Positions 7,524 to 44,366 of a stretch of 64,000 bases of DNA are shown here, one piece after another. Numbering within the stretch: position 1 is the first letter of the stretch; every line of letters starts with the position of its first letter. The translations under genes were made by a program, and so were the position numbers. A model generated the notes under the pieces. It was given only the letters and a program-made list of their open reading frames with translations, was not told where the DNA came from and made no database searches. Location: positions 15,623 to 79,622 of the forward strand of contig BTUM01000031.1 in NCBI GenBank assembly GCA_045863235.1. Direction: 5' to 3'. Source of the stretch: Candidatus Xenobia bacterium (lineage in GTDB: Bacteria > Vulcanimicrobiota > Xenobia > Xenobiales > QWHO01).

Positions 7524-8735
7524 ATGATCCCTCCCCTGCGCAACGACAAGGAAGTCCGCAAGGCTGCCCGCGAGGCGATCGGGGGCCGCACCGAGGACAT
7601 GGAGAAAGCCCTGGAGCAGATCGGCGTCCACGGTCACAACAGTGACGTGCAGGACGTGGCCAACGTGGGCCTGATGGCCATGCAGGGGGTGGAGACCGGG
7701 CACGAGACCACCGAACTGGCCCGCCGCCAGGCCGGTAGGGCGGCGCTGGATGTCCTGAGCAGCGAGCACGACCCCAAGGGCAGCGTGCAGGGCGTGGGGC
7801 GCGTGGGCGAACAGTTGACCGACCCCAGCAACGCCTTTGCTCTCAACCTGAGCGGGGCCGAGACCATCTTGCAGGCGATCCAATCGGCCGCCATCCCGGG
7901 AGCCATGGGAGCGGCCATCGCCTTCACGCTGAAGCTGGGCGAGAAGCTGCGCGAGCCGGGACGCACCGCTACCCAACACAGCTCATTCACCCCCGAGCGC
8001 CCCGAGCACATGCTGGGCCCGGGGCAGAACTTCGACTTCGTGGGGGTCTCAGCCGTTTACCACGCCGCCTTCTCCAACCTGGTCTCGCTCGATCTTCGGC
8101 CCCAGGTCGGCGAGCAGATGACGTCAGTGGAGCTGGCCGACCTGGGCAACTCGATGCTGCTCTACGCCGGCGAGGCCAACGCGAAGTACCCCGGCTACCT
8201 CGAAACCCCGGACACTCCTCAGGTGGTGGCCAGCGAGGTGCTCGCGCGCCTGCCCGAGACCGCCAAGGCTACCGAGGATACCCGTCGCTGGGCCGAGCTG
8301 GGCATGAAACTTCTAAGCGACAACCCGCAGGCAGCCGGCTGCGAGATCATCCTGAAGGCTGTCTCGGACAAGAAGCCTGCCAACTCGGTGACCTTGCTGG
8401 CCATCGGACGCCAGGCCCTGGAGGCGCTGCCCGAAGAGCGGCGCGAGAGCTTCGCGCAAAACGTGCTGTACCAGGCCGTCAGCCAGCGCCAGCGAGAGAG
8501 CGAGGAGCCCATCAAGGGCGCCTGGGCGGCGCTGAACGAGATGGCCGGGCGGGTCTCGCGCAACGAGCTCTCGGCCAGCCAGGCCGTGCTCGGAGGGGTG
8601 GAGCAGCTCTCCCAAACGGACCCGTGGCTCATGCACGGGACCACGACGCCCAGCAACGCCGGTATCGCGGCCAATGAGCACGTGGTCTTCGTGCCGGGTG
8701 GGCGCCTCAAGGTGCGCAAGCCCCCGACCAGTTAA
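7524..8735 (+). CDS. hypothetical helical protein with conserved C-terminal motif
   Basis: 403-aa ORF with coding bias; ends GIAANEHVVFVPGGRLKVRKPPTS. Confidence 0.75.
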   Translation: MIPPLRNDKEVRKAAREAIGGRTEDMEKALEQIGVHGHNSDVQDVANVGLMAMQGVETGHETTELARRQAGRAALDVLSSEHDPKGSVQGVGRVGEQLTDPSNAFALNLSGAETILQAIQSAAIPGAMGAAIAFTLKLGEKLREPGRTATQHSSFTPERPEHMLGPGQNFDFVGVSAVYHAAFSNLVSLDLRPQVGEQMTSVELADLGNSMLLYAGEANAKYPGYLETPDTPQVVASEVLARLPETAKATEDTRRWAELGMKLLSDNPQAAGCEIILKAVSDKKPANSVTLLAIGRQALEALPEERRESFAQNVLYQAVSQRQRESEEPIKGAWAALNEMAGRVSRNELSASQAVLGGVEQLSQTDPWLMHGTTTPSNAGIAANEHVVFVPGGRLKVRKPPTS

Positions 8736-8755
8736 GCCAGGACCAGGAGGGAAGG

Positions 8756-9112
8756 TCAGGCCGACTCGGCCAGAAGCTGGCGCTGGCTCGCGCCCAGCCG
8801 CAGCCAGTGCTGGCCCTGGTCCACCGCCGGGATGGAGAGCACCAGGTACATCCCCGGGGCTGGCGGCTGAGCCAGGTCGCGACCCACCAGCTCGGAGGCG
8901 ACCTCGAGCGAGGTGACCGCCAGGGTGGTGGAGAGTACGCCCTCCTCGAGCTTGATGTCGCGAAGGTCAAGGCTGTCGATCATCTCCAACCCCTCTTCGT
9001 CGCACGGATCCACCACCATCACCACCGGGCTCCCCTCGCCGCGGCGGAAGGCCTGCCGGGCCAGTTGCTCGATCTGGTCCAGGTTCAGGTCAACCAACTC
9101 GTTCTCGATCAT
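8756..9112 (-). CDS. hypothetical protein
   Basis: Globular-looking 118 aa; AAGGAG upstream of ATG. Confidence 0.65.
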   Translation of the reverse strand: MIENELVDLNLDQIEQLARQAFRRGEGSPVVMVVDPCDEEGLEMIDSLDLRDIKLEEGVLSTTLAVTSLEVASELVGRDLAQPPAPGMYLVLSIPAVDQGQHWLRLGASQRQLLAESA

Positions 9113-9262
9113 CAGGTCGCGGACTCTCCTTCAGCTTGAATGTGTTTCCATTTTAGCATGGAAAAAAATTCTGCATAGAAGACACCTGTTCGATTTTACC
9201 GGATACAAACTACCAGGACTGTTCGACAGGCGAGGCCTGGCGGGGCCTGAAGGAACACCAGC

Positions 9263-10006: not shown

Positions 10007-10017
10007 TCCCCGCTCAG

Positions 10018-10239
10018 GACGAAAATGCATTCGGGGCTCCGGTTCGGTGATGGATCATGATCCGCTTCCGGGCAGGATCACGACGAAAACGTATTCGGGG
10101 CTCCGGCCCGCTGATGGATCATGATCCGCTTCCGGGCAGGATCACCACGAAAACGTATTCGGGGCTCCGGCCCGCTGATGGTTCATGATCCGCTTCCGGG
10201 CAGGATCACGACGAAAACGTATTCGGGGCTCCGGTTCGG
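10018..10239. repeat. intergenic tandem repeat, 64-bp unit, ~3.5 copies
   Basis: Units start at 10018, 10082, 10146 and 10210; contains the palindrome GGATCATGATCC. Confidence 0.95.
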
Positions 10240-10279
10240 GGGCTGGGCCACCCGGTGAGTCGGATGCGCCCGTGGCCGT

Positions 10280-12412: not shown

Positions 12413-12584
12413 GATTCCTCCTGTGCTGATGGCCATTGCATCCTAATGGGTTCAAGCCTCGGGAGGGTGAACGAGTTTTGAACAATTCGAACATGGCCAG
12501 CGAAGCGCGCAGTTGGTCGTGAGCCTGGAGCTCCGGGGACATGAGCCCGGTCCTGCGAGCTGCGCCAGGCGCACCGGCTCAACG

Positions 12585-12614: not shown

Positions 12615-12635
12615 GTCAACTCGAACCGGCAGACT

Positions 12636-24652: not shown

Positions 24653-25120
24653 CTACCGGGTGGATGGGACATAGCCTCGGATGTGATCCTGATTGCGCTC
24701 GATGGCATCCAGGATGCGGTGGGCCCGGGCTGCCCGCTGATACCTGAGCGCGCCCACCGCCAGCGCGCCCGCTGACAGAGCCATCATCCCCACGCCCGCC
24801 CAGGTGGCCAGGGGTAGACCTGGCACGATCACTGAGGCAGCGGTGCACAGAGCGCCGGCGACCACTCCTAAGCAGGCGGTCGGATACACGTTCGAGCGGC
24901 CCAGATAGACGTCGAAGCTGTAACCCGGCGGGATGCCCCGCCCGTGTTCGCTGGCCAGTCGGTGCATCTCATACAGATCCTTGCCCGGAGCCTGGCTGAG
25001 GGTCTCCAGGTCTTGCTCGGCCCGCTCGGCTCCCTCGAAGTCGTTGGCGCCAATCAGCAGGGCGCGACGCTGCCTGAGGGCGGGTTCGATGACGGATCGC
25101 GCGGGTGAGGTGATCTCCAT
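24653..25120 (-). CDS. hypothetical protein with two-TM hairpin
   Basis: Hydrophobic segment ACLGVVAGALCTAASVIVPG...AGVGMMALSAGALAVGAL. Confidence 0.6.
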   Translation of the reverse strand: MEITSPARSVIEPALRQRRALLIGANDFEGAERAEQDLETLSQAPGKDLYEMHRLASEHGRGIPPGYSFDVYLGRSNVYPTACLGVVAGALCTAASVIVPGLPLATWAGVGMMALSAGALAVGALRYQRAARAHRILDAIERNQDHIRGYVPSTR

Positions 25121-28909: not shown

Positions 28910-29098
28910 CTCGCCTCTTTCTGAACGGTCCCAAGCTGAAGGGCCCGACTTCGGCGTGAAGTGATCAGGCGCTGAGGAGTTGGCAAACAACGGCAACAAG
29001 CCGGCAACGTCCGTAACGAATTGCTAGCATTTACTTCCCGCCAGGACCCGCCCGGAGCGTTAGGATGCTCTCAGACACCCATGGCAGGAGGAACTCAC

Positions 29099-29818
29099 GT
29101 GGACGCTCTGCAGCAGCTCAACTCCCTCGGTGGTCCAGGCTTCGGATTCTCGCCGGGTCTCTCGGCCTTCTCGCCCGGAGCTGCCGGGGCCCGCTGCCTC
29201 GGGGGCTGCTGTGGAATGCAAAATCCCTTCGCGATGATGATGCTGCAGAACCAGATGCTGACCCAGATGCTGAGCATGTTGATGCAGCTGATGAGCCCGT
29301 CGGCGAGCTCGCTGGGCGGCTCCCCTTCCTCGCTGGGCGGCTCCTTCTCCCCCGCCTCGACGGGCGGCTCCTCCTCGCCTTCTTCCACGGGAACGGGATC
29401 GAGCTCGGGCGCCGGCAGCGGGGCGGTGGACGCCTCCCAGTTCCAGGGCGGCACCGAGACCGGCCGCCGACTGGCCGCCGAAGCCCAGAAAGAAGCAACC
29501 AACGGCGACAGCAGCGGGGGCTGGTGCTTCCGCGACGCCGGCCGAGCCCTGGCCAAGGTGGGCATCAACACCAGCGGTGCCAGCGCCTACATGGCCGCCG
29601 ACCAGCTGGCCAAGAACCCCAAGGTCAAAGAAATCAAGGTCTCCCAGGCCGACCTGCCCAAGCTGCCCCCGGGCGCCATCGTGGTCTGGGACAAGGGGCC
29701 GGGCCATCCGCACGGGCACATCAGCATCGCCCTGGGCAACGGCAAGGAAGCCAGCGACCTGCTGCGCAACCAGATCACCAACTATGGCACCAGCTTCCGC
29801 GTATTCATGCCGATCTAG
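29099..29818 (+). CDS. CHAP/NlpC-P60-like cysteine amidase with low-complexity N-terminus
   Basis: GWCF (catalytic Cys), GAIVVW, HGHISI; AGGAGG before GTG 29099. Confidence 0.75.
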   Translation: MDALQQLNSLGGPGFGFSPGLSAFSPGAAGARCLGGCCGMQNPFAMMMLQNQMLTQMLSMLMQLMSPSASSLGGSPSSLGGSFSPASTGGSSSPSSTGTGSSSGAGSGAVDASQFQGGTETGRRLAAEAQKEATNGDSSGGWCFRDAGRALAKVGINTSGASAYMAADQLAKNPKVKEIKVSQADLPKLPPGAIVVWDKGPGHPHGHISIALGNGKEASDLLRNQITNYGTSFRVFMPI

Positions 29819-29821
29819 AGC

Positions 29822-30589
29822 TTGTCTGATCCGCTCTTTGCCTACCTCGAAGAGCTGCAGGGAGCCGAGCCGTGGGGCCACGTGCTGGATGCCGGCACGG
29901 GCTGGGGCTCGGCCTCCTGGCTTTTGGGCCTGCCCCTGGCCAGCTTCACCGGCGTAACCGGGGACGCGACCTGGGCCCGCCAGCTGCGCACCGACTTTGC
30001 CCCGAGGCTGCGCCCTTTCGACCGCTTCTTGAGCGGGAACTGGGCTGACCCGGGCCTGCTCGAGGGCGAGCTCTTCGACACGGTGGTGGCCGACTATCTG
30101 CTGGGCGCGCTCGACCGCTGGGCGCCCTACCGCCAGTACGACCTCTTCCAGAGACTGCATCACCTGGTGGGCAAGCGGCTCTACGTGGTCGGCCTGGAGC
30201 CCTATCCCGAGCCGCCCTCCAACGAGGATGAGAAGTTGGTGCTGGAGATCGCCCGACTGCGCGACGCCTGCCACCTGCTTGCCGGCCAACGCCCCCACCG
30301 CGAGTATCCCCTGGCCTGGACGCTGGAAGCCCTGCGCAGGTCGGGCTTTGAGGTACGCGAGAGCCGTCTCTATCCCATCGTATATGCCCGGCGCTTCGTC
30401 GAGGAAGAGCTCGACCTGACCCGACGCACCATCGAAAGCCTGAAACCGGCCAGTCTGGCCCGAGCCCTGGGCGCAGTGGAAAGGGACCTGCGAGCCCGGG
30501 CCCTGCGCCACCTGGAGCGGCGCGGAGGGCTGGCGGCCGGGGCCGACTACGTCGTCGCGGCCCGACCGGCGCGGGAAGGAGCGCCCTGA
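29822..30589 (+). CDS. class I SAM-dependent methyltransferase
   Basis: VLDAGTGWG motif I, FDTVVADYLLG. Confidence 0.85.
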   Translation: MSDPLFAYLEELQGAEPWGHVLDAGTGWGSASWLLGLPLASFTGVTGDATWARQLRTDFAPRLRPFDRFLSGNWADPGLLEGELFDTVVADYLLGALDRWAPYRQYDLFQRLHHLVGKRLYVVGLEPYPEPPSNEDEKLVLEIARLRDACHLLAGQRPHREYPLAWTLEALRRSGFEVRESRLYPIVYARRFVEEELDLTRRTIESLKPASLARALGAVERDLRARALRHLERRGGLAAGADYVVAARPAREGAP

Positions 30590-30609
30590 CAGGTGACGAA
30601 TTTTCACGC

Positions 30610-31428
30610 GTGAAGAACCGCACCCCCCGCGTCATTGCGGCGCTCTTGCTGCTGTTGGCGCTGCTGGCGCCCGCTCGGGCACAGGACGTGGACCAACCCG
30701 AGCCTCCCGAGACCTTCAAGCTGGAAGAAGGCAGCGTGCGGGTGCTGGACAAGTTTCGACGTCCGTTCCTGTTGCCCAAAGGCACCGCCTGGATCGGGGC
30801 GCGGCTCGACCTCGACGCCGAGGGGATGAGCCCGTTCATCAAGGACTACGAGGTTCTGAGCGCCGGAGGCGTGGATTACGAGGTCAAGCAAGACGCAGAC
30901 TATGTGAAGTTCCCCCTCGAGAACGGACGAGCCACCGTGCGCTTCGTGGCCTTCACCGATTCGGCCAGCAACCCGGTGCTCTACGAGCTGGTCTTCCTGC
31001 ACAAGGTGAAGGGCAAGGACGTGGTCATCCCTTTGAACGATGCGGCCTGGCGGGCAGGCGACCCCTCCACCGTGGGCTCGCGCACCCTCAGCACCCCGCG
31101 CGACCGGGCTCCCAACCAGAGCTGGGAGTGGGCCCTGCTGATCGGCTTCGTGCTGGCGGGCGTGGTGCTGGCTTATGTCCTCTTCGGGCGCAGTCTTTTC
31201 GCCCGCATGCTCAAGGTCAAGAGAATGGAGGTCACCACCGCGCTGGGATACTCCAACCTGCTGGTGCTGCTGGGCCTGGGCCTGGTGCTGTTGTGCGGGG
31301 CGGGGCTCTACATGTTCCCCAAGATCCTTTGGGGTAAGCAGGTGATGATCTACCTCGTGGTCGGCGGGGGCTGCCTGGCCGGGCTGGGCGCGGGTTACGG
31401 CGCCGGCGTGGTGCTGACAAAGGCCTGA
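30610..31428 (+). CDS. signal peptide + extracytoplasmic domain + three-TM membrane protein
   Basis: Sec signal (ALLLLLALLAPARA); three C-terminal hydrophobic helices; TGATG overlap with next gene. Confidence 0.8.
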   Translation: MKNRTPRVIAALLLLLALLAPARAQDVDQPEPPETFKLEEGSVRVLDKFRRPFLLPKGTAWIGARLDLDAEGMSPFIKDYEVLSAGGVDYEVKQDADYVKFPLENGRATVRFVAFTDSASNPVLYELVFLHKVKGKDVVIPLNDAAWRAGDPSTVGSRTLSTPRDRAPNQSWEWALLIGFVLAGVVLAYVLFGRSLFARMLKVKRMEVTTALGYSNLLVLLGLGLVLLCGAGLYMFPKILWGKQVMIYLVVGGGCLAGLGAGYGAGVVLTKA

Positions 31429-34400
31429 TGGACACTCCCGGCGCCCAGGCCGACCTGATCCGCATCCGCCCCACCATCTTGATCGGGCTGGGAGGCACCG
31501 GCGGCGACGTCATCTTGCGCGTGCGCAAGCGCTTCTACGAGAAGTACGGCACGCTGTCGGAGTTTCCCATCGTGGCCTACCTGTGGCTCGACACCGACAA
31601 GAGCGAGAAGCACATCCTGGGCAAGGAAGTGCGCGAGTTCGTGCGCATGACCGACGTCGAGCGGTTGATGCTCACGATCGGCGACACCACCGTCATCACC
31701 CAGAACCTGAAAGAGCCCAACAACGCCCACATCGACAAGTGGTGGTACCCGGGCCTGAACGCGCTGGGCCAGATGAACGAGGGCGCGGGACAGATCCGCG
31801 CCTACAGCCGGCTGGCCTTCTTTCACCACTACAAGACCATCCGCGCGGCCGTGACCGAGGCCAACACCCGGGTGCGCGATCCGCACGCCATGGAGCGGAT
31901 GATGCACTCGAACATCCTCAAGGACCAGGGCATCCTGGCTCAAGTCGAGTTCAACCAGCCCACCAACGTCTACCTGGTCACCTCCATCGCCGGCGGGACC
32001 GGCAGCGGGCTGTTGCTCGATACCGCTTTCATGATCAAGGACCTGTTCCAGGAAGGCAACGTCACCCTCAGCTCGTTTCTGGTCTTCCCCGATCACTTCG
32101 GCACCATCACCAACGAGAAGATGAAGGCCAACGCCTACGCCCTGCTCAAGGAGCTGAACTACTACAAGTATGGCAGCCACACGTTCGACGCCGAGTGGTC
32201 GCTGGGAGTCACTGCCCGGGTTCCCATCCCCCCCTTCGACTACTGCTACGTCTTCGACAACCAGAACGCGGCCGGCCAGGCCACCGGCGGCCAGCCCGGC
32301 AGCCAGGAGCTGATCTTCGAGCTTCTGGCCGACTCTATCTTCAAGGATTTCTCCCACGGCGAGTTCGCCGACCACAAGCGCAGCGCCCGGGTCAACCTGC
32401 GCCAGTACATGAACAAGACCTACGAGCACGCCCATCCGCGCTTCAAGCAGAACTTCATCCAGCGCTACCAGTCGTTTGGCATGTCCACCATCGTGGTACC
32501 CCACGCCCGCATCACCACCGCCTGCGCCTACAAGCTGGCCACCGAGGTGGTGGACCTGTGGTCGGGCCAGAGCAAGGCCTCTTTCAACCAGGCCGATCTG
32601 CCCCGTTTCGTCAAGGAAGACTTCCTGCCCGCCCTGCACCTTCTGGAGGACGACTCCAAGCGCAAGAACGAGATCCTCTTCTCTCTGCTCGATCCGGGCG
32701 GCCTGGCCGACCCCGACAAGGGGCGCAACCAGGGCCTGCTCGACGAGTTGAGCAAGTGGTCGCAGGAGGTGCTGCGCAACGTGGAGCGCGGCCAGCTCGG
32801 CCCGCGCCAGACCCTGCGCGACTTTCTGGAAGAGAAGTTCGGCGAGCAAGAAAAGCGCCTCAAGGCCGAAGAGCTGGGGGCCGAGCCCGAGAAGTGGGGC
32901 CACTTCCCGCGCACCATCCGGGCCAACCTGGAGGCCCTGGAGAAGCGCGCCAGCGAGGACATCCGCAAGAAAGCGTTCCAACTCGTCGATCAAAAGAACG
33001 ACAGCCTGAAGTACTCCGAAGCCGTCTTGAACGAGACCGTCGAGGTGTTGCGCTCGTTCGTGACCACTTTCCAGAAAAAGCAGAGCGACATTCAGGACGT
33101 TCTGGTCCGGCGCCAGAAAGAGGCCACCCGCCGGCTGCAGGAAGTGGGGCGCTACCAGAACCGCTCCAACCTGGACGGGCGTAAGGGCATCATCCTGGCT
33201 TACGTGGCCGAGCGCTACCTCGAGTCGCTGGTGGGCGACAACCGCACTCCCGGCCTCTTGCGCTGCCAGCTGCAGGCCCGCGTCTACAGGGAGGGAGCCG
33301 AGCTGATCGAGCGGTTGGCCCGGGCCATCCAGGGCAGCGAGCGTCCCGATGGGCGTCGGGGCGGAGGGATGGTGGATCAGCTCACCTCCCTGGCCCGCGA
33401 CCTCGAGGGGCTCAAGAACGAGCTGGCGGGCGGGTTCAAGTACTTCAGTCAGAAGGATCCCCAGCCCCAGGCCCTGGTTCTCTACGAGCCCACCGACATC
33501 GAGAGCAAGTACTACCCGGCCTACGTCAAGGGCACCGAGACGGTGCAGGCGGTCAGCAAGGCCGTGCTCAAGCGGCTGGAGCGGGCCGTCACGGGCCTGG
33601 CAGCCGACATCGCGGCAGGGCGCACCGAGGAGTGGAAGCGGGCTCTCTTGACCGAGTCGCGCAACCTGTTCGCCGGGCTGAAGACCGACTTTCACGTGGT
33701 CAAGGTGCTCTACACCACGATGGACGAGCAGACGCGCAACAACCACCTGCGCCAGATGTACTCCCGCTCGGCCTACTGGGCCACCAGAAGCGGCCTGCAT
33801 GGGACCTTCCAGCTGCCTGAAGAGCAGATCCACACCATGTGCGGGTTGCCCTCAGCGGCCGGCATGAGCCCATCGGACGCCGCCGAGCTGACCGGCTACC
33901 TCAACCAGCTCAAGGCCTATCTCACCCGCGAGGTGACCGGCAAGCTGAACTTCTATCCCATCCCCGAATCGAGCGAGATCATCTTCTACCAGGAGGCGGG
34001 CGGCTTCCCCATCAACTACATGGCCCGCTTGACCGATCTGCGCGGCTCCTACCTCAAGCTTTACACCAACGGCGAGCCGCTGCACATCGACTGCAACGAC
34101 AAGAAGTTCCCCGACCTGATGGTGCTCAACCAGGAAGAGCGGCGCTCTCTGGAGGAAGCCTACGAGTGCTGGGTGCTCGGCTGTCTGTTCGACGTGCTGG
34201 AGTTCAAGGGGGGCGAGTATCTGTGGCAGGAGCGCGACGGTTTCCAGATGCGCCCGCACCCTCTGGGGGATCGGCACATGATGCTGGTCAAGCTGACCAC
34301 CGGGGCGGCCACCCGCGAGAAGCTCTACAAGCTCGTCAAGCAGCGGCGCGACGCGGTGCTCTCCACCCAGGACGAGCAGGAGATGGCCGCCTACTGCGCC

Positions 34401-34667
34401 CTGCTCGAGCATTACAAGCGCGAGGCTTACGGCGAGAAGTGGGGCAAGGTCTCCAGCGAGTCGGAGCTACCCTTCGAGGACATGATGACGGTGCGGGTTC
34501 TCTCCGATGAGGTGCAGCACGTGATGGAGTCCCCTCTGGTACGCTCGCTGGGGCCCGACGCCATCGGGCAGAAGGCCGAAGAGGTGATGGCCCGGGCCGA
34601 GCAGTTCACCAGGAAGCGCGAGGACGGCAAGCTGGCCCTGCTGGCGGCCACCAAGACCAAGCCCTAG
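31428..34667 (+). CDS. tubulin-like (Tubulin_2 / FtsZ-superfamily) GTPase domain protein with long helical C-terminus
   Basis: IGLGGTGG, GAGQIRAYSRLAF, SIAGGTGSG, ANAYALLKEL. Confidence 0.9.
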   Translation: MDTPGAQADLIRIRPTILIGLGGTGGDVILRVRKRFYEKYGTLSEFPIVAYLWLDTDKSEKHILGKEVREFVRMTDVERLMLTIGDTTVITQNLKEPNNAHIDKWWYPGLNALGQMNEGAGQIRAYSRLAFFHHYKTIRAAVTEANTRVRDPHAMERMMHSNILKDQGILAQVEFNQPTNVYLVTSIAGGTGSGLLLDTAFMIKDLFQEGNVTLSSFLVFPDHFGTITNEKMKANAYALLKELNYYKYGSHTFDAEWSLGVTARVPIPPFDYCYVFDNQNAAGQATGGQPGSQELIFELLADSIFKDFSHGEFADHKRSARVNLRQYMNKTYEHAHPRFKQNFIQRYQSFGMSTIVVPHARITTACAYKLATEVVDLWSGQSKASFNQADLPRFVKEDFLPALHLLEDDSKRKNEILFSLLDPGGLADPDKGRNQGLLDELSKWSQEVLRNVERGQLGPRQTLRDFLEEKFGEQEKRLKAEELGAEPEKWGHFPRTIRANLEALEKRASEDIRKKAFQLVDQKNDSLKYSEAVLNETVEVLRSFVTTFQKKQSDIQDVLVRRQKEATRRLQEVGRYQNRSNLDGRKGIILAYVAERYLESLVGDNRTPGLLRCQLQARVYREGAELIERLARAIQGSERPDGRRGGGMVDQLTSLARDLEGLKNELAGGFKYFSQKDPQPQALVLYEPTDIESKYYPAYVKGTETVQAVSKAVLKRLERAVTGLAADIAAGRTEEWKRALLTESRNLFAGLKTDFHVVKVLYTTMDEQTRNNHLRQMYSRSAYWATRSGLHGTFQLPEEQIHTMCGLPSAAGMSPSDAAELTGYLNQLKAYLTREVTGKLNFYPIPESSEIIFYQEAGGFPINYMARLTDLRGSYLKLYTNGEPLHIDCNDKKFPDLMVLNQEERRSLEEAYECWVLGCLFDVLEFKGGEYLWQERDGFQMRPHPLGDRHMMLVKLTTGAATREKLYKLVKQRRDAVLSTQDEQEMAAYCALLEHYKREAYGEKWGKVSSESELPFEDMMTVRVLSDEVQHVMESPLVRSLGPDAIGQKAEEVMARAEQFTRKREDGKLALLAATKTKP

Positions 34668-35204
34668 ATGTTGTGCCTGCGCTGCGGAGCCAGCCCTCCG
34701 GCAGGCTCGAAGTATTGCCCTCAATGCAACGCGCTCTTGCTCCAGGCCGCCCCTCAGGAGCCGCGGGCAGGCCTTTCGCTCGAGGAAGGGCGCGAATATC
34801 CGGTGCCGCAAGAGCGCTTCCTGACCCACAACCTGAACGTGCTGCACGACCTTCTCTATCACAATCTCGAGGAGGTACCCGGCTATCTGAGCGAGTTGCG
34901 CGGGCTGCTCGAGGAGTTCGCCGGTCAGGCCGTGCCCCAGCTCCTCGAGCTCTTGCTGGTGGAGGAGCAGGCCGACCCGGAGGGCAGCTTTGTGCCCGAG
35001 GTGCGCTATCTGATGGTGCGCGGGGTGGATCTCTTCCGAGAAGGACTGGATCGACTCGAAGGCGCCCTCTCTCCGCTGGACGAGGCGGAAGCCGAGTCGG
35101 CCTTCGAGACCCTCTCGCAGGGCAACGATCATCTGTGCGGCGGGCTGCTCAAAGTGGAGGAGCGCCAGCAAGAACTCCTTCGGCGCGTCGAGCGCGCGCC
35201 TTGA
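34668..35204 (+). CDS. zinc-ribbon + helical-bundle protein
   Basis: CLRCG...YCPQC; ATG abuts TAG of the tubulin-like gene. Confidence 0.8.
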   Translation: MLCLRCGASPPAGSKYCPQCNALLLQAAPQEPRAGLSLEEGREYPVPQERFLTHNLNVLHDLLYHNLEEVPGYLSELRGLLEEFAGQAVPQLLELLLVEEQADPEGSFVPEVRYLMVRGVDLFREGLDRLEGALSPLDEAEAESAFETLSQGNDHLCGGLLKVEERQQELLRRVERAP

Positions 35205-35372
35205 TGCCCTCGAAACAGCTTTTTCTCACGCAACGTGCCCGAACCGTCAACATCCGAACGATTAAGAGTTTACAATATTTCGAAAAACGTTAAGGTTTTT
35301 GTTGCAAACGGACTGTTTACCCTGGTGCCGGAGGTCGTGACAGAGAACTATCCGGCCAAGGAGGAACACAGC

Positions 35373-35843
35373 ATGAGTTTACTGAGCGGAATCGGCGACA
35401 TCGCGAAGGGCGCCGTCGGGATTGCCACCACCCCCCTGCGCAAAGGACTGGAGATCGCGGGAACGGGGCTGGAAACAGGCGGTAAGGTGCTGGGAAACCT
35501 GGCCGAGGGCGATCTGGCCGGAGCCGCCTCGGCGGCCGCCAACGGCACGGTCCAGCAGTTCAAGAACGTGGTCTCCACCCCGGGCGAGGTGCTCGGGGAC
35601 GCCAAGGAGATGGCCGGCGGTTACGGCGACGTGCTGACCAGCGGGGTCAAGCTGGTGGGAGAGCCGGTGCGGGGCGCGGCGCGCCTGGTCGGCAACGGGC
35701 TGGAGACGAGCGGCTCGACCCTCACCAACCTGGCCGAGGGCGATGTGGGTGGAGCCATCAACGCCCAGGTGCAGGGTGCCGGCAACGCCTTCGGCATCGT
35801 GGGCGACACGGCCAAGAACCAGGTCAACAACCTGGTGGGCTGA
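35373..35843 (+). CDS. Gly/Ala-rich amphipathic protein with internal duplication
   Basis: AAGGAGGA RBS; GLETGGKVLGNLAEGDLAGA vs GLETSGSTLTNLAEGDVGGA; own terminator. Confidence 0.8.
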   Translation: MSLLSGIGDIAKGAVGIATTPLRKGLEIAGTGLETGGKVLGNLAEGDLAGAASAAANGTVQQFKNVVSTPGEVLGDAKEMAGGYGDVLTSGVKLVGEPVRGAARLVGNGLETSGSTLTNLAEGDVGGAINAQVQGAGNAFGIVGDTAKNQVNNLVG

Positions 35844-36397: not shown

Positions 36398-39115
36398 TCA
36401 AGGGCTGACCAGCAGCGGATAGACGGCCTCGAACGAGCGAGGGATCAGGCCCAGCTCCTTCTCGAAGTGAGCCAGGGTATCGCGATACTGGCGCAGAGCC
36501 TCGCCCTTGCGATTCTGCAGCGCCAGGGCCTCGATCAGGTCGATGTGCAGCTCCTCGCGCAGGTCATCCTGGGCCAGCCCGGCCCGGGCGGTCTCTTCCG
36601 CCAGGCGGCCCTGTCCCATGGCCAGCCGGCAGCGGGCCAGCTGGTGATGAGCCCGCAAGCGCAGCTCGAGATAGTGGGCCCGGGGCCCTTCGACCCAGGG
36701 CTCGTCGAAGCTGGCCAGAAAGTCGCCCCGGTAGAGCTCCAGGGCGCTCTGCAGCTGCTCGGCCGCCTCGGCTCCCTCGGCCAGCCGGCTGGCGGCGGCC
36801 ATCAGCCGGGTCTCGAAGTCTTCCAGGTCGAGCGAGGCGTCCAGGTGCAGTTCCACCGTGCCCGACTTGCGGCTGCGCCGGATCACCTCTTGCTCCACCC
36901 CCACCTGGCGCAGCACGGTGCGGATCTGGTGCAGGGCGTGGCGCAGGTTGGAACGTCCGCGGGTCGGGTCGGCCTCGGGCCAGAAAGCTTCCACCAGCAC
37001 CCCGTCGGCGTGGGCCGCTCCCCGGCGGTGGGCCAGCATCGCGAAGAGGCGCAGGGCTTTGCGGGTGGGCCAGTCGCTCTCGCCGATCACGCGACGTCCT
37101 GCCTCCAGGCGCACGTCTCCCAGGCAACGCAGGCGCAGGCGCTCGACCGGCTCGGCCGGCTCGCTCTCGCGCAGGGGTCGCAGCAACCAGACCGCGCCCG
37201 GACCGGGGAGATCGAGGCCTTGCTCGGCCTGTCGGGCCGGCTCGCTCTGACCGAGGAGGTGCAGCGCCTCCGACTGCAGCCACGGATTGCCCAGCTCTCC
37301 GGCCTGCTCGGCCACTCCGGCCAGCACCCCGGCACGTTCGGCACCGCTCAGGGCAGCCACGCTGGCCACCGCCATCAGCTCGCCCATCTTGTTGCCGTAG
37401 AGCTCAAACTGCTCGGCGGCCTCCTGGAAGGCCTCCTGGGAGCGCTGCACCACACCCAGCCCCATCAGGCTCCAGCCCACCAGGTGGGTATCCCCCAGCA
37501 ACCGCGCCTCGCGCAGGCTATCCTCGAAGGAGGCCACAGCCTGGGCTCTGCGCCCCAATCCGAACAACGACAGCCCCAACGGAAAGCGAGCCAGCCCGGG
37601 CAGCCGGGCCATCCCCAGCTCGCGGGCCAGCTCGAAGCTCTCCTGGGCCTGGGCCAGAGCCGTCTCGTAACGACCGGCCAGGGCCTCGACTGTGGCCGAG
37701 ATGCGCAGCGCGTGGGCGCGGGCCGCCTGATCGCCGGCCAGCTGCAGGCTCTGATCCACCGTCGCGCGGGCCGGCTTCAGCTCGCCCCGAAAGGCCTGGA
37801 TCAAGGCCGCGTAGTTAAGGCACTTCAGCCGTTCATCGCGGTCGGAGCCTTCCAGGGACTGGCCGTAGAGCTGCAGGGCCTGGCGATAGCGGCCGGTGTT
37901 CAGGCAAACCCCGGCCAGCGAGATGCGCGCCTTGAGGTCGGAGTCGGCCCGGCCCAGCAGCAGGGCTTCGGCTTGCTCCGACCGGCCCAGGCAGCTCAGC
38001 GCGTTGGCCTGCACCACGGCCAGCTGGTCCGGGCGACCCACCCGCTCCACGGCGCCGATCACGAACTGGTACTGACCGCGAGAGCAGAGCCCGGCGGCCA
38101 CCTGCTCCAGGAGCTCCCGGGCCCGGGTCTCCTGCCCGGCGCTCAGAAAGAGCTCGAAGGCCGGCTGGGACTGGCCCAGCTCGGTGAAAAGCTCGGCCAG
38201 CTCGAGGCTCCGCTGACGACGCATCTCGGCCCCCAGCCCGGCCGCCACCTGACCGGCCAGCAACTGGTGCAGCAGCACTCCTCCGCCCGGGTCGCGCTGC
38301 ACCAGAAAGCGCTTCTCCAGGGTTTCCAGGGCCGGTCCCAGGCAATCGCCCGGCAGGCCCACCGGGCTCAGGGCGAGGAGCTCCAGGGCCCTCCGCTCCT
38401 CGGGACCAACCTGGCCGAGCACCTCACGAAGCAGGTAGTCACGCACCGCGGCCGGGGCCTCGCTGAGCTTACCGGGCAGCAGCCGCCGGCTCACGATCAG
38501 GCTGGCCAGCAGCTTGATCAACAGAGGATGGCCGCCGGTGGCCGAGGCCAGCTCGGCCAGCGGGGGCAGCTCGCTCTCCAGGCCCGGGTGCAGGGCCAGC
38601 AGTCGCTCGAGCAAGAGGCGAGCCATCTCGGGAGGCAGCTCCTCGAGCCGCTGCTCGAAGATGTCCACCCGGTCGAGCGGCGCCACCGGCAGGTCCTCGC
38701 GGGAAACCAGCACCACGCGCGCCGACAGGTAGGTCTGCAGTAGCTTGACCAGGGTATCCAGGTCGGCCGGACGCAGCAGGTGGGCGTCGTCGATGACAGC
38801 CAGCCGATCGCTCTGGTTCAGCCAGCGGATCTGGATCAGCAACCGATCGCGCACCGAGGCAGTACCTGCTTCCCCGCCCGAAGCCGCCTCCAGGGCGGCG
38901 GCCAGGTCCTCCAGTCCCCCGTCGGGGAGGCAGCGCAGGTAGAAACCGCGCCGCCCTGGCTGGCGGTGCAGCAGAGCCAGTGCCAGCGAGGTCTTGCCGA
39001 TGCCCGCCAGCCCGGTGATCAGGAAGAGATGGCGGTGAGCCAGTACGTCGCTCAGCCTGGTCAGCTCGCTCTCGCGGCCCAGGAACGTCTCGGGGGGACG
39101 AGGCAGCAGGTCCAT
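36398..39115 (-). CDS. STAND-type NTPase + TPR + C-terminal winged-helix/BTAD transcriptional regulator
   Basis: FLGRESEL, GLAGIGKT, VIDDAH, TGGHPL; C-terminal WPTRKALRLF, FWPEAD, LYRGDFL, DDLREE. Confidence 0.88.
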   Translation of the reverse strand: MDLLPRPPETFLGRESELTRLSDVLAHRHLFLITGLAGIGKTSLALALLHRQPGRRGFYLRCLPDGGLEDLAAALEAASGGEAGTASVRDRLLIQIRWLNQSDRLAVIDDAHLLRPADLDTLVKLLQTYLSARVVLVSREDLPVAPLDRVDIFEQRLEELPPEMARLLLERLLALHPGLESELPPLAELASATGGHPLLIKLLASLIVSRRLLPGKLSEAPAAVRDYLLREVLGQVGPEERRALELLALSPVGLPGDCLGPALETLEKRFLVQRDPGGGVLLHQLLAGQVAAGLGAEMRRQRSLELAELFTELGQSQPAFELFLSAGQETRARELLEQVAAGLCSRGQYQFVIGAVERVGRPDQLAVVQANALSCLGRSEQAEALLLGRADSDLKARISLAGVCLNTGRYRQALQLYGQSLEGSDRDERLKCLNYAALIQAFRGELKPARATVDQSLQLAGDQAARAHALRISATVEALAGRYETALAQAQESFELARELGMARLPGLARFPLGLSLFGLGRRAQAVASFEDSLREARLLGDTHLVGWSLMGLGVVQRSQEAFQEAAEQFELYGNKMGELMAVASVAALSGAERAGVLAGVAEQAGELGNPWLQSEALHLLGQSEPARQAEQGLDLPGPGAVWLLRPLRESEPAEPVERLRLRCLGDVRLEAGRRVIGESDWPTRKALRLFAMLAHRRGAAHADGVLVEAFWPEADPTRGRSNLRHALHQIRTVLRQVGVEQEVIRRSRKSGTVELHLDASLDLEDFETRLMAAASRLAEGAEAAEQLQSALELYRGDFLASFDEPWVEGPRAHYLELRLRAHHQLARCRLAMGQGRLAEETARAGLAQDDLREELHIDLIEALALQNRKGEALRQYRDTLAHFEKELGLIPRSFEAVYPLLVSP

Positions 39116-39128
39116 CGAGGCAGGCTTC

Positions 39129-39992
39129 TCAGCCGACCCGGTTCCACTCCTCCACGTACTCAAAAAGGCCCGGGTCGCGCTGGCGCAAGAGCTCGCGCTC
39201 GGCCTGATTGTTGAGATAGAAGGCCACGCCCTCAGCCAGGTACTCGTAGACTTTGTGGCTGCGGGCGGCGTACTCGCTGACCACGTGCTGCTCGGCGTCG
39301 GGACGATACTCGCGGGGCTCGGCGAAGCGGTCGGTCTCGCGCGGCGCGAAGACGGTCTCGGCCAGCTTCTTGCCGGTCCAGGCGGTGCCGACCACGGCCG
39401 CCGCGGCCGCCACCGGCACCAGACCGGTGGCCAGCGAGGCGCCTACAGCCAGGGCGGTCACCAGGGCCGGGGTCCTGGCTCCCCGAGCCCAGCCCTCCCA
39501 GTCGCGGGGCTGAGTCTGGGGCGAGGCCGTGCGGGTCAGGTAACCCCGGTAGAGGTGCTCGAGGCGGCTGTCCAGCTGGGAGGCATACGGCTTGTCGAAC
39601 CGGCTGAAGAAGCGCTGCACGGGGCCGAGCTTGCTCTGGCGCTTGAGGAAGTCGAGCGCGTGGGTGATTTCGTGGAGAGCCGCCCGGCGCCGCTCGTTGG
39701 GGGCCCAGCTGGGGTTCAGGTCGATCCGCTTCTGATAGCCGTTCTGGATGCCGCCGATCTGGCTCGGCAGGCACTTGTAGCTGATCCGGTAGCCGGCCGT
39801 GCACAGCTTCTCGACCTGCTCGGGTGTGAACGACTCGAGCACGCCGAGCAGCTCCGCGCGCAGCTCGCGGGTGGCATACTGGGGGTTGAGCAACTGGTCG
39901 AGCGCCTGCGCCGCGTCGGAGCGGCCGGCCTGCTCGGGGATACGAGCGGCGACGGAGCGGACGGGCAGGTTCAAGAGGCCGTTGATTCTCAC
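39129..39992 (-). CDS. anthrax lethal factor-like (ATLF/PPEP-type) zincin with hydrophobic hairpin insert
   Basis: LHEITHALD, SEYA...YEYLAEGVAFY, LRQRDPGLFEYV; GTG 39992 start inferred. Confidence 0.7.
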   Translation of the reverse strand: MRINGLLNLPVRSVAARIPEQAGRSDAAQALDQLLNPQYATRELRAELLGVLESFTPEQVEKLCTAGYRISYKCLPSQIGGIQNGYQKRIDLNPSWAPNERRRAALHEITHALDFLKRQSKLGPVQRFFSRFDKPYASQLDSRLEHLYRGYLTRTASPQTQPRDWEGWARGARTPALVTALAVGASLATGLVPVAAAAAVVGTAWTGKKLAETVFAPRETDRFAEPREYRPDAEQHVVSEYAARSHKVYEYLAEGVAFYLNNQAERELLRQRDPGLFEYVEEWNRVG

Positions 39993-40056
39993 ACGAGCAT
40001 TATCGCTCCAGGGCTTGAAAGTTCCCTGAAGCAACACGTTGTGCCATCCTCCAGGC

Positions 40057-40280: not shown

Positions 40281-40281
40281 A

Positions 40282-40776
40282 TCAGGGCACCGGCTGGAAG
40301 GTGGCCGCCGACTGGGCGAACAGCTTGGAAACGCCGCTCCACCTGGACTCGAGCGACGTGCCCGTAAAGAGATAGGTCTTGCCCCGGGCCACGAACCAGG
40401 TGCTGTGAAACTGCAGCTTGCGGCCCTGCATGGTCATCTTCCAGATCATCTGGTGTCCTGGCGTGGAGCCGAGCTTGACGGACTTCTCGGAGACGATGGT
40501 GGCCTGGGCCGACTTGATCTGCTCGCGGGTGATGCGGGTGAACTCGTCGAGCTTGCTCACCGGCTGGATCATGATGTTGATGTTGGCCACGAAGCCGCCC
40601 TGATCCACCCCTGTGAACACAGACGAGGCCTTGATCTGAGCGGCCCTGTCAGGGTGGCTCTTCCAGCCGGCGGGGGGCACCAGTTGGTAACCTGCTTTCT
40701 TGTCCACGAAGGGCTTTCCCGGCGCAGCCAGGGCCAGCGCGGCCAGCAGAAGAACGAGAGCCAGCCTGAGCTTCAT
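40282..40776 (-). CDS. secreted PsbP/DcrB-like protein
   Basis: Signal peptide; YQLVPPAGW, FVANINI, YLFTGT, F..SAATF. Confidence 0.75.
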   Translation of the reverse strand: MKLRLALVLLLAALALAAPGKPFVDKKAGYQLVPPAGWKSHPDRAAQIKASSVFTGVDQGGFVANINIMIQPVSKLDEFTRITREQIKSAQATIVSEKSVKLGSTPGHQMIWKMTMQGRKLQFHSTWFVARGKTYLFTGTSLESRWSGVSKLFAQSAATFQPVP

Positions 40777-41840
40777 GGGCTCTTGCGGGCCACGCGGCTG
40801 GACCCGAAGACGATCCAGTCAGGGGTCTCGACCACCGATCCCCCGACCGTTGGGGCGCGACCTCCGAGCAGGGCCGCCTTCAGGTGATCTTCGGTGAGGC
40901 CGCGCTGCAGCCAGCGTTGCTTGTCCTCCTCGAACCGGCGGCGCGACCAGTCGTCTTTTGCGTCCTGCTCTTTCTTGACCAGGCTGGTGGCTGCGCAGGT
41001 CAGAGCCTGCTCACGCTCCTCCTCGGTGTAAGGCAGCTTCTGGTCGAGCAGTCGCCCGATGGAGCCCAGCAGGCTATCCTGTGGGGTCTTGCGATAGCGC
41101 TCCACCGCCTGTCCCAACTCGCCGGGCGCGTAGATCACCCGGCGAGCGCGATTGACGTCCTCCAATCGCAGCTCCACCAATCCCTCCGCGATCAGGCCCT
41201 TGACGGCCTCGGCCAGAGGGGACGGCGTCTGGCTCTGGAACTCGAGAAAGGCCTTCAGGTCCGGAAAGAGGCCTTCCAGCTCGCGTGGGAGAGCCCGGGT
41301 GAGAGCCTCGGCAGCGGCCTGGCGCACCTCGTCGTCCGAGCCGGACGCAGTGGGTTTACGTCGGGAGGCCGACCGAATCACCTTTTCGTCCACCTGCTCC
41401 TGAGTCAGAAATCCGTGGCGCACGGCCGAATGCAGTCGTCCGGCCGGGTCGTCCACCCCGTAGCCAGTGTGCCGGCAGGCGGGGTAGACCGCCTTGAAGG
41501 CCCTGGAGCCTAGCCGGGCCAGGGGCTGACGCTCGAGCATGACCTCCACCTGGGCCTTCACGTTCTCGCGGTTGAGCGCCCCGGCCCCGCGCAACTGGGC
41601 CAGCTCGGTGGAGATCTGGCCCATCCGCTCGGACATGCGCCGCGAGGTAGCACGCTCCTCGGCGCTCTGAAAATCGGCCGCCTCGCAATACATATAGGTG
41701 CCGTAGCACTGCTGCAGCTCGGCCTCCAGCTCGCGAATGCGGTTGGCACTGGTTTCGACCGGCGCCTCGGCCTTCGGCTCGGACTTGCGTCGGGCGGCCA
41801 CCTGAGGCAGGGTCGGCTGGAACGGCTGGATGGGGTTCAC
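40773..41840 (-). CDS. hypothetical helical protein with conserved C-terminal motif
   Basis: 355-aa ORF; ends SVVETPDWIVFGSSRVARKSP; ATGA overlap with downstream gene. Confidence 0.75.
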   Translation of the reverse strand: MNPIQPFQPTLPQVAARRKSEPKAEAPVETSANRIRELEAELQQCYGTYMYCEAADFQSAEERATSRRMSERMGQISTELAQLRGAGALNRENVKAQVEVMLERQPLARLGSRAFKAVYPACRHTGYGVDDPAGRLHSAVRHGFLTQEQVDEKVIRSASRRKPTASGSDDEVRQAAAEALTRALPRELEGLFPDLKAFLEFQSQTPSPLAEAVKGLIAEGLVELRLEDVNRARRVIYAPGELGQAVERYRKTPQDSLLGSIGRLLDQKLPYTEEEREQALTCAATSLVKKEQDAKDDWSRRRFEEDKQRWLQRGLTEDHLKAALLGGRAPTVGGSVVETPDWIVFGSSRVARKSP

Positions 41841-41924
41841 CTGAGCAGGATATCACTTCAGGGGCCTTTCAGGGAAGACGCTTAGACTTCTCGGTATGAA
41901 ACTTGCCCCGGTCGGCGACGCTCT

Positions 41925-44366
41925 GTGATCTCTGCCCTGAGGGGACTGTTCGCCCGGCCCGACCAGAAGCGGGCCCGGCAGGCTCTGGCGGGCGAGGGCC
42001 CCCTGAGCGACCGCTTTGAGAAGGTGCACAGCCAGGCCGAGAAGCCCGAGGCTCGAGCCATCCTGGAGCTGACCCGGCAGGCTTCCGAGCAGGCCAGCGG
42101 GGTCCATCGCGAGGCCCTGCTGCGCACCGGTCTCGAGAGCCTGGTGCAGAGCGTGGACGCAAGCGGAGGGGCCCTGGCCGGACTCGGAGCCCGCCTGCTG
42201 ACCTCGGTTTCCGAGCCCACGGAACGAGTCCGGGTGGCCCGCGCAGTGCTCGATCACCTGGGAGAGAATGCCCCCGAGGATGAAACACGCGAGTCAGCCC
42301 GCTTTCTGCGCGCAGTGACCGCGGGGGCCCACTACCTCAACAGCCAGAGCGCCGGCGCCCGGGCCGGGCTGGAGAGCCTGGCCGCCGGGGGCTCACTGCC
42401 CGTGCAGGCCCTGGCTGCGGCGGCAGAAGGCTTGCAGGGCGAAGGGCGGGACGATGCGGCGGCCATGCGGCGCAAGGCGGTCGAGCTCTTGTCCGGGCAG
42501 GATCCACTGGCCCGCATGGGCCACCTGGCCCTGGACAAGATGCGCTTCTCGGATACCAGCTCCCGCCTGGTGGAGCGCACCCTGGAGCTGGAGGGGACCG
42601 AGCTCCCCGAGGCGGCTCTGGCCCTGCTCGACTGCGCATACGTGGGAAAGGACTCGCAGGGCAACTGGGCCGACGAAAGGAGCCCCGTGGCCCGGGTGCT
42701 GCTGGCCGAGCTGGGAGGCCCGCTGGCAGATTCCGCCCGAGCCCTGCTGGACGCCTCCAGCTATTCGGCCAGCAATGAGGCCATTGCCAGGGCGCTGATC
42801 CCCGCTGCCCCGGGAGTCACGGAAAGCCAGCAGGCGGGCATGTTCCTGACAGCCCTGCAGGGAGCCCTGGCCGCCAAGAATACCGAGGGCACCTACAAGG
42901 ACGACAGGACCCCGGTAGCCCGCCAGGCGGCCCAGCACTTCCAGGCCAGCGCCGATCCGGCCGTGGCTCGACTGGCTCGCATGGCTTCGGCAGCCCTCGA
43001 GGGGCGCAAGTTCACTTCCAGCAACGTGGCCATCGGAGAGGTCTTCCTGAGGGCGCTCCAGGGCGGCTCGAAGGACCCCTACCCGGTGGCGGCTGCGATG
43101 ATCGAGGGGTGCACCAGCGCCGATAACAGCGAAGGAACCTGGCAGCCCGACCGGGCCACGGTGGCCCGACAGCTGGTGACCGCCCTCAAGAGCCAGGAGA
43201 CCGATCCCGGCAGGCTGCGTCTGCTGGGCATGGCCGAGGCGGCCATGGGAGAATCGCTCGGTTTCGCCACCACCACCGAGCAGGTCGCTCTGCAGGCCTT
43301 CCGGGGCATCGGTTCGACCCGCGACTCCGACCTGGGTCGGTTGGCCCGCGTCATGGTGGAGAATTCCCAGGCCGGGCGGACCACCGAGCAGGCCTACAAG
43401 GACGACAAGACCGTGGTCGGACTTCGTTGCGCCGCCTACCTGGCAGCTCATGGCGAGCAACCCTCCACGCGCGACTGGGCCAGCTTCCTGCAGCTCTCGC
43501 TCGACCGCATGACCTTCACCACGACCGGTGAAGGCGTGGCCAGCGTGGTCTTCGCGGCCATCGCCGCCGGCAAGCCGTCCGACCCCGCTTCGCTGGCCAG
43601 GGCGGCCCGCCAGATGGTGCAGGAAAGCTATGCCGGCAAGACTTCCGACGGTCGCTACGAGGATGACAAGGCGAAGGTGGCCCGCAACGCCGTCGATCAC
43701 CTGGTCACACTCCAACCCGAGCCGGCCAGCCTGATGCTGCAGGCCTGCCTGCAAGATGCGCACTACTCCACGTCCATCGCCTCCCTGGCCGATACTGGCC
43801 TGGCAGCCCTGGCCTCGGGCAAGAGATCGCCGGCCGAGCTGGCCTCGCTGGGCAAGCAACTGATCGCCTGCGGCGAGGTCACCAGTGCCAAGCAAGACCG
43901 GGGGCCGCTGGCGATGGCCGTGTTCCGAGCCCTGGCCGAGCACGAGCAAGATGACTCCCTGTGGGCTGCTCATGGCATGATGAATACCTCAGTCGACTTC
44001 CGGGTGCGCCAGGCGGTGGCCGGGATGATCCTGGACGCCTGGGCATCGGGACGGCTCGAGACGTTTCTGGAGAGAGAGCTGGCCCAGGCAGCCCCCCACC
44101 CGGGCAACCATTCCATGATGCTCCAGGGGGCCTTGCGAGCCGTGGCCGCCACCCGGGGCGAGGCGGCGGTGCAGGCGGCCGAGCAGGCCATCGCCCGGGC
44201 CGGCGACAGCCCTCAGGCGCTGTTCGAGGCTCTCAAGAATCTGCCCGACGTCCGCCGCGAGGTGAAGAATCTGCTCGCCGCCGTTGCGGAGAAGAAGGGC
44301 GGAGCCGTCGAGGAGCGCGCTCAGTATGTGCTGGTGGGCGGGGTACGCATCCGCAAGGCCGCTTAA
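41925..44366 (+). CDS. alpha-helical repeat protein (~80-aa units) with conserved C-terminal motif
   Basis: 813 aa; repeated K[DNT][ST].G.[YW]..D[RK]..VAR; ends AVEERAQYVLVGGVRIRKAA. Confidence 0.85.
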   Translation: MISALRGLFARPDQKRARQALAGEGPLSDRFEKVHSQAEKPEARAILELTRQASEQASGVHREALLRTGLESLVQSVDASGGALAGLGARLLTSVSEPTERVRVARAVLDHLGENAPEDETRESARFLRAVTAGAHYLNSQSAGARAGLESLAAGGSLPVQALAAAAEGLQGEGRDDAAAMRRKAVELLSGQDPLARMGHLALDKMRFSDTSSRLVERTLELEGTELPEAALALLDCAYVGKDSQGNWADERSPVARVLLAELGGPLADSARALLDASSYSASNEAIARALIPAAPGVTESQQAGMFLTALQGALAAKNTEGTYKDDRTPVARQAAQHFQASADPAVARLARMASAALEGRKFTSSNVAIGEVFLRALQGGSKDPYPVAAAMIEGCTSADNSEGTWQPDRATVARQLVTALKSQETDPGRLRLLGMAEAAMGESLGFATTTEQVALQAFRGIGSTRDSDLGRLARVMVENSQAGRTTEQAYKDDKTVVGLRCAAYLAAHGEQPSTRDWASFLQLSLDRMTFTTTGEGVASVVFAAIAAGKPSDPASLARAARQMVQESYAGKTSDGRYEDDKAKVARNAVDHLVTLQPEPASLMLQACLQDAHYSTSIASLADTGLAALASGKRSPAELASLGKQLIACGEVTSAKQDRGPLAMAVFRALAEHEQDDSLWAAHGMMNTSVDFRVRQAVAGMILDAWASGRLETFLERELAQAAPHPGNHSMMLQGALRAVAATRGEAAVQAAEQAIARAGDSPQALFEALKNLPDVRREVKNLLAAVAEKKGGAVEERAQYVLVGGVRIRKAA

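Follow-up and report, generated by a model that had tools for sequence, protein, structure and literature searches.

Three otherwise unrelated proteins encoded in a 64,000-nucleotide stretch of DNA from a Candidatus Xenobia bacterium (contig BTUM01000031.1, positions 15,623 to 79,622; hereafter the window) end in the same motif of about 20 residues, the tail. In the genome to which the window belongs (G000), this tail is a real, undescribed and phylum-restricted protein module, carried by a co-regulated candidate secretome. We propose, with slightly less than even confidence, that it docks some 190 non-enzymatic binding proteins on one common partner after their type III-type export via the N-termini. 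The tail itself is probably not an export signal, because orthologues that lack it keep the same promoter and N-terminal head and because the motif persists at internal positions. The three carriers in the window and their tails are the following:

7524..8735, plus strand: carrier 1 (P0001), an orphan protein of 403 aa; regulon promoter not detected upstream
8664..8717, plus strand: tail motif of carrier 1, atypical, 14.0 bits (15.9 held out)
40773..41840, minus strand: carrier 2 (P0002), an orphan protein of 355 aa with a type III-like head; its distant orthologues are without the tail
40782..40835, minus strand: tail motif of carrier 2, 29.5 bits (27.8 held out)
41925..44366, plus strand: carrier 3 (P0003), an orphan protein of 813 aa; by-query TM (template modelling) score never above 0.22 in the structure search
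44307..44360, plus strand: tail motif of carrier 3, near consensus, 38.4 bits (34.2 held out)

A first-pass annotation of this DNA had described these open reading frames (ORFs), their shared C-terminal tails and the divergent orientation of 40773..41840 and 41925..44366, all of which were recovered as written. Its view that the bodies are unrelated was borne out as well: all-against-all BLAST of the three bodies returned self-matches only, with no full-length homology, and no Pfam family was found. The motif pattern given at that stage correctly captured the shared tail, but its [PG]-[GS] position proved to be a minor variant of the genome-wide consensus, [GAS]-[VIL]-x-E-x4-[VL]-x-[VIL]-G-G-V-R-[VL]-[RK]-[RK]-R. 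The peptidase at 53755..55311, put forward as a weaker fourth match, is a non-carrier, scoring -14.5 and -11.9 bits.

For the analysis of the whole 8.36-Mb genome (97.6% complete, with no 16S gene in the assembly), 6,264 genes were called with our own codon model; this set is approximate, with starts often placed too early. With the tail profile at 16 bits or more, 181 of 191 matches lay within 35 residues of the C-terminus, compared to an expected 8.5%. In a held-out test, for which the profile was trained on even-numbered contigs and scored on odd-numbered ones, including that of the window, the same was true of 95 of 101 matches (8.6% expected, log10 P -92), and the median score over all genes was -16 bits, against 15.9, 27.8 and 34.2 for the window carriers. 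Defining a carrier by a match of at least 14 bits within 40 residues of the C-terminus, we counted 186 among the 6,264 called proteins, about 3%, so the motif is far from confined to the three proteins of the window; a looser cut-off yields 189. No match was obtained in three shuffled proteomes, and 35,950 uncalled frames gave five, all terminal. A P-type ATPase (14.1 bits) is a false positive that is nevertheless counted among the 186, and another false positive seen in the carrier list (13.4 bits) is presumably an FHA protein. A linker enriched in G, S, A, P and T (50% versus 36%) precedes the tail, which leaves between 0 and about 30 free residues on its C-terminal side. Codons at the conserved tail columns match genome usage, which implies that selection acts at the protein level; together with the median pairwise identity of only 47% among the 60-nt tails, this rules out a DNA repeat or recent duplication as their origin.

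AlphaFold models of 100 tails place three short strands at positions 13–15, 19–22 and 25–28, with a predicted local distance difference test score (pLDDT) of 83–84 in the core, and the 20-residue tail is accordingly predicted to fold as a three-stranded β-meander. It matched no known family or fold in Pfam, the PDB sequences, the PDB folds or the ESM Atlas, and the best Foldseek rows, GAPDH meanders with an E-value of 0.5, are not significant. Seven proteins contain internal copies of at least 20 bits, each followed by another domain, and one family keeps the tail about 200 aa from the end in the genome families f1, f3 and f4; two proteins carry two copies each, and tandem arrangement occurs. 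Given these internal and tandem copies, the tail behaves as a portable mini-domain that is independent of the chain end. The history of carrier 1 illustrates both positions: all four of its homologues keep the tail (15.2–16.7 bits), and in a paralogue (C22:1328) the motif is internal (27 bits). In one conserved family an internal tail is followed by about eight tandem 20-residue β-type repeats (G000:C3:76161, C3:123379, C32:68044 and C135:163; L223, L256 and L276); a Pfam scan of three members found no family.

The bodies to which the tail is attached are diverse. Those of the 189 carriers obtained with the looser cut-off fall into 91 unrelated clusters, with protein lengths from 150 to 1,838 aa, and 34 of the 189 adjoin another carrier, compared to 11 expected. 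A Pfam scan of 140 of them found no family in 110, β-propellers in 21, MAM domains in five, weak matches in two, an HD domain in one and the false-positive ATPase in one, so that only one or two of the 140 belong to enzyme families. Among the 98 tail-less genes that share the carriers' promoter, 72 were scanned at a stricter E-value and 29 of these encode members of enzyme families, with three below the curated cut-off. The families include peptidases C11, C26, C92 and M48, endonuclease I, PhoD, 5'-nucleotidase, amylases and acyltransferases, with GDPD and a glycolipid synthase also among the members. A tail-less regulon protein (L025:10950-12611, G000:C66) has a weak, below-cut-off match to a lethal-factor-type metallopeptidase domain.

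The promoter common to these genes reads TTCAG-N5-TTTCAG-N10-TAnnnT-N6/7-start. On general grounds of promoter spacing, we interpret it as a direct repeat at the -35 position plus a -10 element placed for leaderless transcripts. In this leaderless form it precedes 99 of the 186 carriers and 98 of the 6,078 other genes; when leadered genes are included, the numbers rise to 118 of 186 and 207 of 6,078. A promoter model trained on non-carriers alone recovers 97 of the 186 carriers. The exact pattern was counted in 61 genomes and occurs 72–81 times per genome in genus g1, 51–61 times in g6, 25–37 in g5, 5–19 in g4 and 0–2 in family f14, compared to 0–3 for the reversed pattern used as a control. 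The promoter is an undescribed element conserved across the order. Its site in the window is the region separating the divergent carriers 2 and 3, where the following elements are found:

41847..41852, minus strand: TATCCT, similar to a -10 element, six bases ahead of the GTG of carrier 2, for which a leaderless transcript is predicted
41856..41872, plus strand: regulon box, TTCAG-N5-TTTCAG direct repeat with an 11-bp period, between the divergent pair; 26.9 bits with the -10 element
41883..41888, plus strand: -10 element TAGACT, 10 bases 3' of the regulon box
41896..41928, plus strand: leader ORF of 10 codons, located where the transcript is predicted to start; its stop codon, TGA, shares bases with the GTG of carrier 3

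The box that adjoins the TATCCT of carrier 2 is oriented the opposite way, and a reverse-strand box scores 18.1 bits. Translational coupling between the leader ORF (41896–41928) and the start of carrier 3 is possible. An assembly frameshift at 41896–41925 was considered and ruled out, since four runs of four studies show no indel at this place; the variant that four runs have at 41922 leaves the encoded leader peptide unchanged. One contig from an RNA run begins exactly at 41896, which we do not count as evidence because contigs cannot show transcript starts.

The same geometry, 11-bp repeats set 10 bp before the -10 element, is known from Pho boxes, and the tail-less members PhoD, GDPD, 5'-nucleotidase, endonuclease I and glycolipid synthase would suit a regulon for phosphate starvation that has no relation to type III export, in which the tail would be an intracellular docking or degradation tag. 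We consider this very improbable. PhoU and PstS-type proteins were not found in G000, with positive controls; the 367 promoter sites in the genome (11-bp TTTCAG repeat, 10 bp, TAnnnT) mostly precede orphan genes with the N-terminal head described below; the internal copies speak against a terminal degron; and Family 1 encapsulin (PF04454) had no match in G000, the control being positive in 3 of 14. PstS-type matches occurred in only three of eight genomes tested. The gap in G000 is unusual and may reflect phosphate gained from prey.

Carriers and tail-less promoter genes also resemble each other at their N-termini. For 99 carriers and 98 tail-less promoter genes, compared with control sets of 209 and 626 proteins, isoleucine or valine occupies position 3 in 70% and 47%, respectively, against 21% and 16% of the controls, and a head model trained on the tail-less members alone separates carriers from controls with areas under the curve of 0.81 and 0.87. 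Among the carriers, 87% have an aliphatic residue or proline at positions 3–4 (50–52% of controls) and 59% have no acidic residue in the first 12 (42–44% of controls). A hydrophobicity rule detected Sec-like signals in none of the 99 carriers with exact starts and in seven of the 98 tail-less members, versus 52 of 209 and 142 of 626 controls, in agreement with the initial suggestion that the tag is specific to the lineage and marks a family of cargo lacking such signals. Type III substrates of Pseudomonas syringae show three N-terminal patterns, which the relevant passages of PMC3338616 present as not strictly required; the carrier head resembles two of the three as given there, and the serine pattern weakly, and the likeness concerns the head of the carriers, not the tail.

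A machine that might read such heads is present. One flagellum-derived export cluster runs from flgB to flhA (C27:54–79 kb) and contains flgB, flgC, fliE, fliF, two fliG genes, fliH, fliI, fliJ, a transglycosylase gene, fliK, a rod/hook-type gene, fliM, fliN, fliO, fliP, two fliQ genes, flhB and flhA, followed by three identical genes for an 81-aa protein. FlhA, FlhB, FliP, FliQ, FliI and FliF, taken together as a type III apparatus, are thus all encoded, with FliR giving no clean match, and flagellin was not found in G000. One of the 81-aa genes bears a regulon box (18.9 bits); promoter and co-occurrence in genomes connect the tagged proteins with this machine. The 81-aa protein was modelled as a single helix without a PDB match, and its size, copy number and position suggest a filament subunit.

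The initial interpretation of the tail as a terminal export signal of the kind used by type I, IV and IX secretion systems (T1SS, T4SS and T9SS) found no support; the alternatives voiced with it, a chaperone-binding or assembly tag, are better readings. The T4SS coupling protein (PF10412) had no match in G000 (control positive in 7 of 14; VirB4 was not searched), the sheath of the type VI secretion system (T6SS; PF05943) had none in any of the eight genomes searched and the phage-type sheath (PF04984) none in G000, both with positive controls. No RTX family occurred among the 140 scanned carriers (the T1SS exporter genes ABC/HlyD/TolC were not searched), and Pfam matched no T9SS immunoglobulin-like C-terminal domain (CTD) in 100 tails or 140 carriers and no dockerin-type family in the tails. 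A signal for some other machine, such as a pilus or type II-like system, would agree with the strictly C-terminal position, the absence of a Sec-like signal, the basic end in g1, the many PilB/PilT-type ATPases and the three secretins. We nevertheless find it improbable, since neither the coupling protein nor either sheath was found, internal copies are conserved, and the carriers share head and promoter with the tail-less hydrolases; moreover, the substrates of type II and pilus systems are periplasmic or undergo prepilin processing. Nor is the basic end the core of the tail, as the genus g6 uses an acidic version.

More weight, although we still regard it as unlikely, belongs to recognition of the tail in the cytoplasm, prior to export, by a chaperone or adaptor such as a stand-alone paralogue of the FlhA C-domain, which would set the timing or priority of one class of type III substrates. 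Chaperones of the flagellum attach to C-terminal regions of their clients, and those of type III systems to short β-motifs; G000 has five stand-alone genes for the FlhA cytoplasmic domain (on C80, C3, C1, C106 and C107), and the lineage-specific charge switch of the tail fits a co-evolving protein partner. This reading leaves the absence of tails from enzymes unaccounted for, and genus g5, with 11–19 FlhA-type matches per genome, is devoid of tails. The CesT family was unmatched, but its control was silent too and the result is uninformative, as is, for the same reason, that for the gp19 tube.

The distribution of the tail provides something of a natural experiment. It occurs in 15 genomes of six families within the Eremiobacterota (Vulcanimicrobiota), out of 161 genomes of the phylum. 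A first profile, for which the best 49 matches per genome were scored, found at least three matches in 13 of the 161, and a second one brought in two more from genus g6, with 35 matches in one and 13 in the other. The tails of g1 are basic and those of g6 acidic, but both retain the alternation of hydrophobic residues and one glycine (profile match E-value 3.6e-6); the initial absence of tails from family f3 (0 of 16) proved to be a sensitivity artefact, g6 being the bearer of the acidic ones. Of 29 matches checked in 30 loci, 25 are terminal and the other four are marginal, from genomes without tails; the marginal single matches inspected in g5, f5 and f14 are all internal. A search of 1.84 billion representatives returned 18 matches, of which 17 score as true tails. 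The window stretch itself is contained in sludge, digester and wastewater runs, runs with a small share of it being left out of use.

The charge reversal between genera also bears on a role after delivery, in which the tail would serve oligomerisation of the carriers or their targeting to a structure in or on a prey cell. A folded β-meander at the chain end with occasional tandem copies would fit a self-assembly module, and basic ends could bind membranes or nucleic acid. The reversal fits one conserved target poorly, and we judge such a role rather improbable.

The orthologues of carrier 2 are the most informative about what the tail can be separated from. Seven close homologues keep the tail and five distant ones end before it; two of the tail-less orthologues, both from genus g5, retain the promoter (30.7 and 24.5 bits) and the head. 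One g5 genome (G047) has the whole export cluster and, in the same position, a highly divergent 81-aa gene (L278:3984-4229) that the profile search had missed, ruling out a loss of the filament gene in this genus. Neither g4 nor g5 yielded a tail with any of three profiles. As g5 carries promoter, head and machine without detected tails, these three can exist without the tail. The 81-aa gene is present in 48 of the 161 genomes, including all 15 with tails, and in none of the 85 of family f14; flagellin varies independently of it. Relatives of the 81-aa protein outside the phylum were found in records titled Bryobacterales and Blastocatellia (L136, L140), and no tails were found in those genomes. 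A carrier 3 orthologue (L185:907-1398 in G043; P0017) of about 150 aa has an in-frame internal deletion, real or a misassembly, with head and tail kept.

Taken together, these observations would be compatible with a three-step scheme. A single promoter type, recognised as a sequence pattern, precedes carriers and tail-less enzymes alike; the common N-terminal head may route both classes through the flagellin-less export cluster; and the tail-less hydrolases would then be released, while the tailed propeller, MAM and orphan proteins would be held by their tails on a surface scaffold. The scaffold would most likely be the filament of the 81-aa subunit family, and the tailed proteins could serve as a variable repertoire for recognising prey or host, the predatory role being a proposal. 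A more ambitious formulation, which we offer as an unlikely possibility, is a two-address code: the head exports several hundred co-regulated proteins, the 20-residue C-terminal plug clips about 190 binders with swappable prey- or host-recognition heads on the filament, the tail-less hydrolases are released, and flagellar parts have been independently repurposed for this purpose.

Several observations weigh against docking on a filament after type III-type export. The structural operon of the export cluster is without a strong regulon box, its own rod and hook-type proteins score low on the head model, and the serine pattern of type III heads is seen in 28% of carriers versus 12–15% of controls, a weak correspondence. 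The promoter site is missing from 68 of the 186 carriers, carrier 1 included. The tail went undetected in 33 of the 48 genomes with the 81-aa gene (only part of which were tested with the broadest profile), among them those of genus g2, whose subunit is 62–77% identical; related genomes are, besides, not independent. G000 also has 23 PilB/PilT-type ATPases and three secretins. Finally, since 110 of 140 carriers are without a family, non-enzymatic here means only that no enzyme family was found.

Tail-less genes and a double box elsewhere in the window are the following:

39129..39992, minus strand: tail-less regulon member, promoter 23.4 bits
46332..47297, plus strand: tail-less gene with a borderline regulon promoter, 18.3 bits
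52521..53222, plus strand: tail-less regulon member, promoter 22.5 bits
53755..55311, minus strand: putative zinc peptidase; Pfam match absent, type III-like head (score 5.1)
55406..55422, minus strand: double box TTTCAG-N5-TTTCAG without mismatch, upstream of the peptidase; the distance to the TAACCT that comes after it is 21 bases instead of 10

The last protein, which we take to be a zinc peptidase from its HExxH motif, is likely a tail-less enzyme of the regulon, in view of its type III-like head and the double box upstream. At 24653–25120 (G000:C31:40275-40742) the window encodes a 155-aa tail-less paralogue of the carriers C2:61290 and C111:1439, in which the tail again appears separable. 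A run of genes at 29021–35843 surrounds a 1,079-aa tubulin-like protein (PF13809) and is followed by an AAA/TPR/BTAD regulator at 36398–39163.

By tail, promoter and head, candidate substrates of a flagellum-derived secretion machine that has not been described before can be listed from sequence, and with binders tailed and enzymes tail-less, the way of life of these uncultured sludge bacteria becomes open to testing. To our knowledge, no C-terminal module is shared among type III substrates; one common to type III-like substrates would be a new sorting layer, and a folded docking module of 20 residues could serve as a protein tag. Searches of the literature on the Eremiobacterota, Vulcanimicrobiota and Xenobia, on secretion in Eudoremicrobi- taxa and on flagellum-derived predatory systems, which covered few subscription papers, turned up nothing on tail, promoter or machine. 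Predation in this phylum has been suggested only from gene content, in PMC9259500, which also lists secretion genes for a related family, and the passages on this phylum in PMC11484240 and PMC9758169 do not mention secretion.

Among known systems, the T9SS CTD and dockerins are portable C-terminal modules of 60–80 aa on unrelated, Sec-dependent proteins, dockerins docking their cargo onto a scaffold after export; the tail differs from both in its length of 20 aa and in carriers without Sec-like signals (0 of 99). From the positively charged end of T4SS substrates it differs in being basic in g1 and acidic in g6. The tail is best viewed as a new instance of portable C-terminal tags, and would be categorically new only if display on a filament were shown. 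The XVIPCD, according to the sections of PMC8740702 devoted to it, is a VirD4-binding domain of about 120 aa, with a tail rich in glutamine, found on toxic antibacterial T4SS effectors. Like the tail, it is a folded C-terminal module on unrelated cargo without Sec signals, and it is read by one partner; unlike it, the tail has 20 aa, no coupling protein was found, and the cargo is mostly without enzyme domains. The fibres of the mosaic adhesive trimer (MAT) system of the predator Bdellovibrio, as portrayed in part of PMC10769870, are phage-like trimers with a large and variable repertoire of binding proteins; the repertoire is a shared trait, but such domains are absent among the 140 scanned carriers. 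The Kil system of Myxococcus, in the portions of PMC12075869 concerned with its architecture, combines four minor-pilin Tip complexes, a Tad pilus and a needleless type III-like system (T3SS*). Its Tips resemble the proposed arrangement in presenting interchangeable variable domains on a predator filament tied to a type III-like basal body; what sets the Eremiobacterota apart is a portable tail on about 190 proteins and an 81-aa helical subunit encoded beside a flagellum-type cluster.

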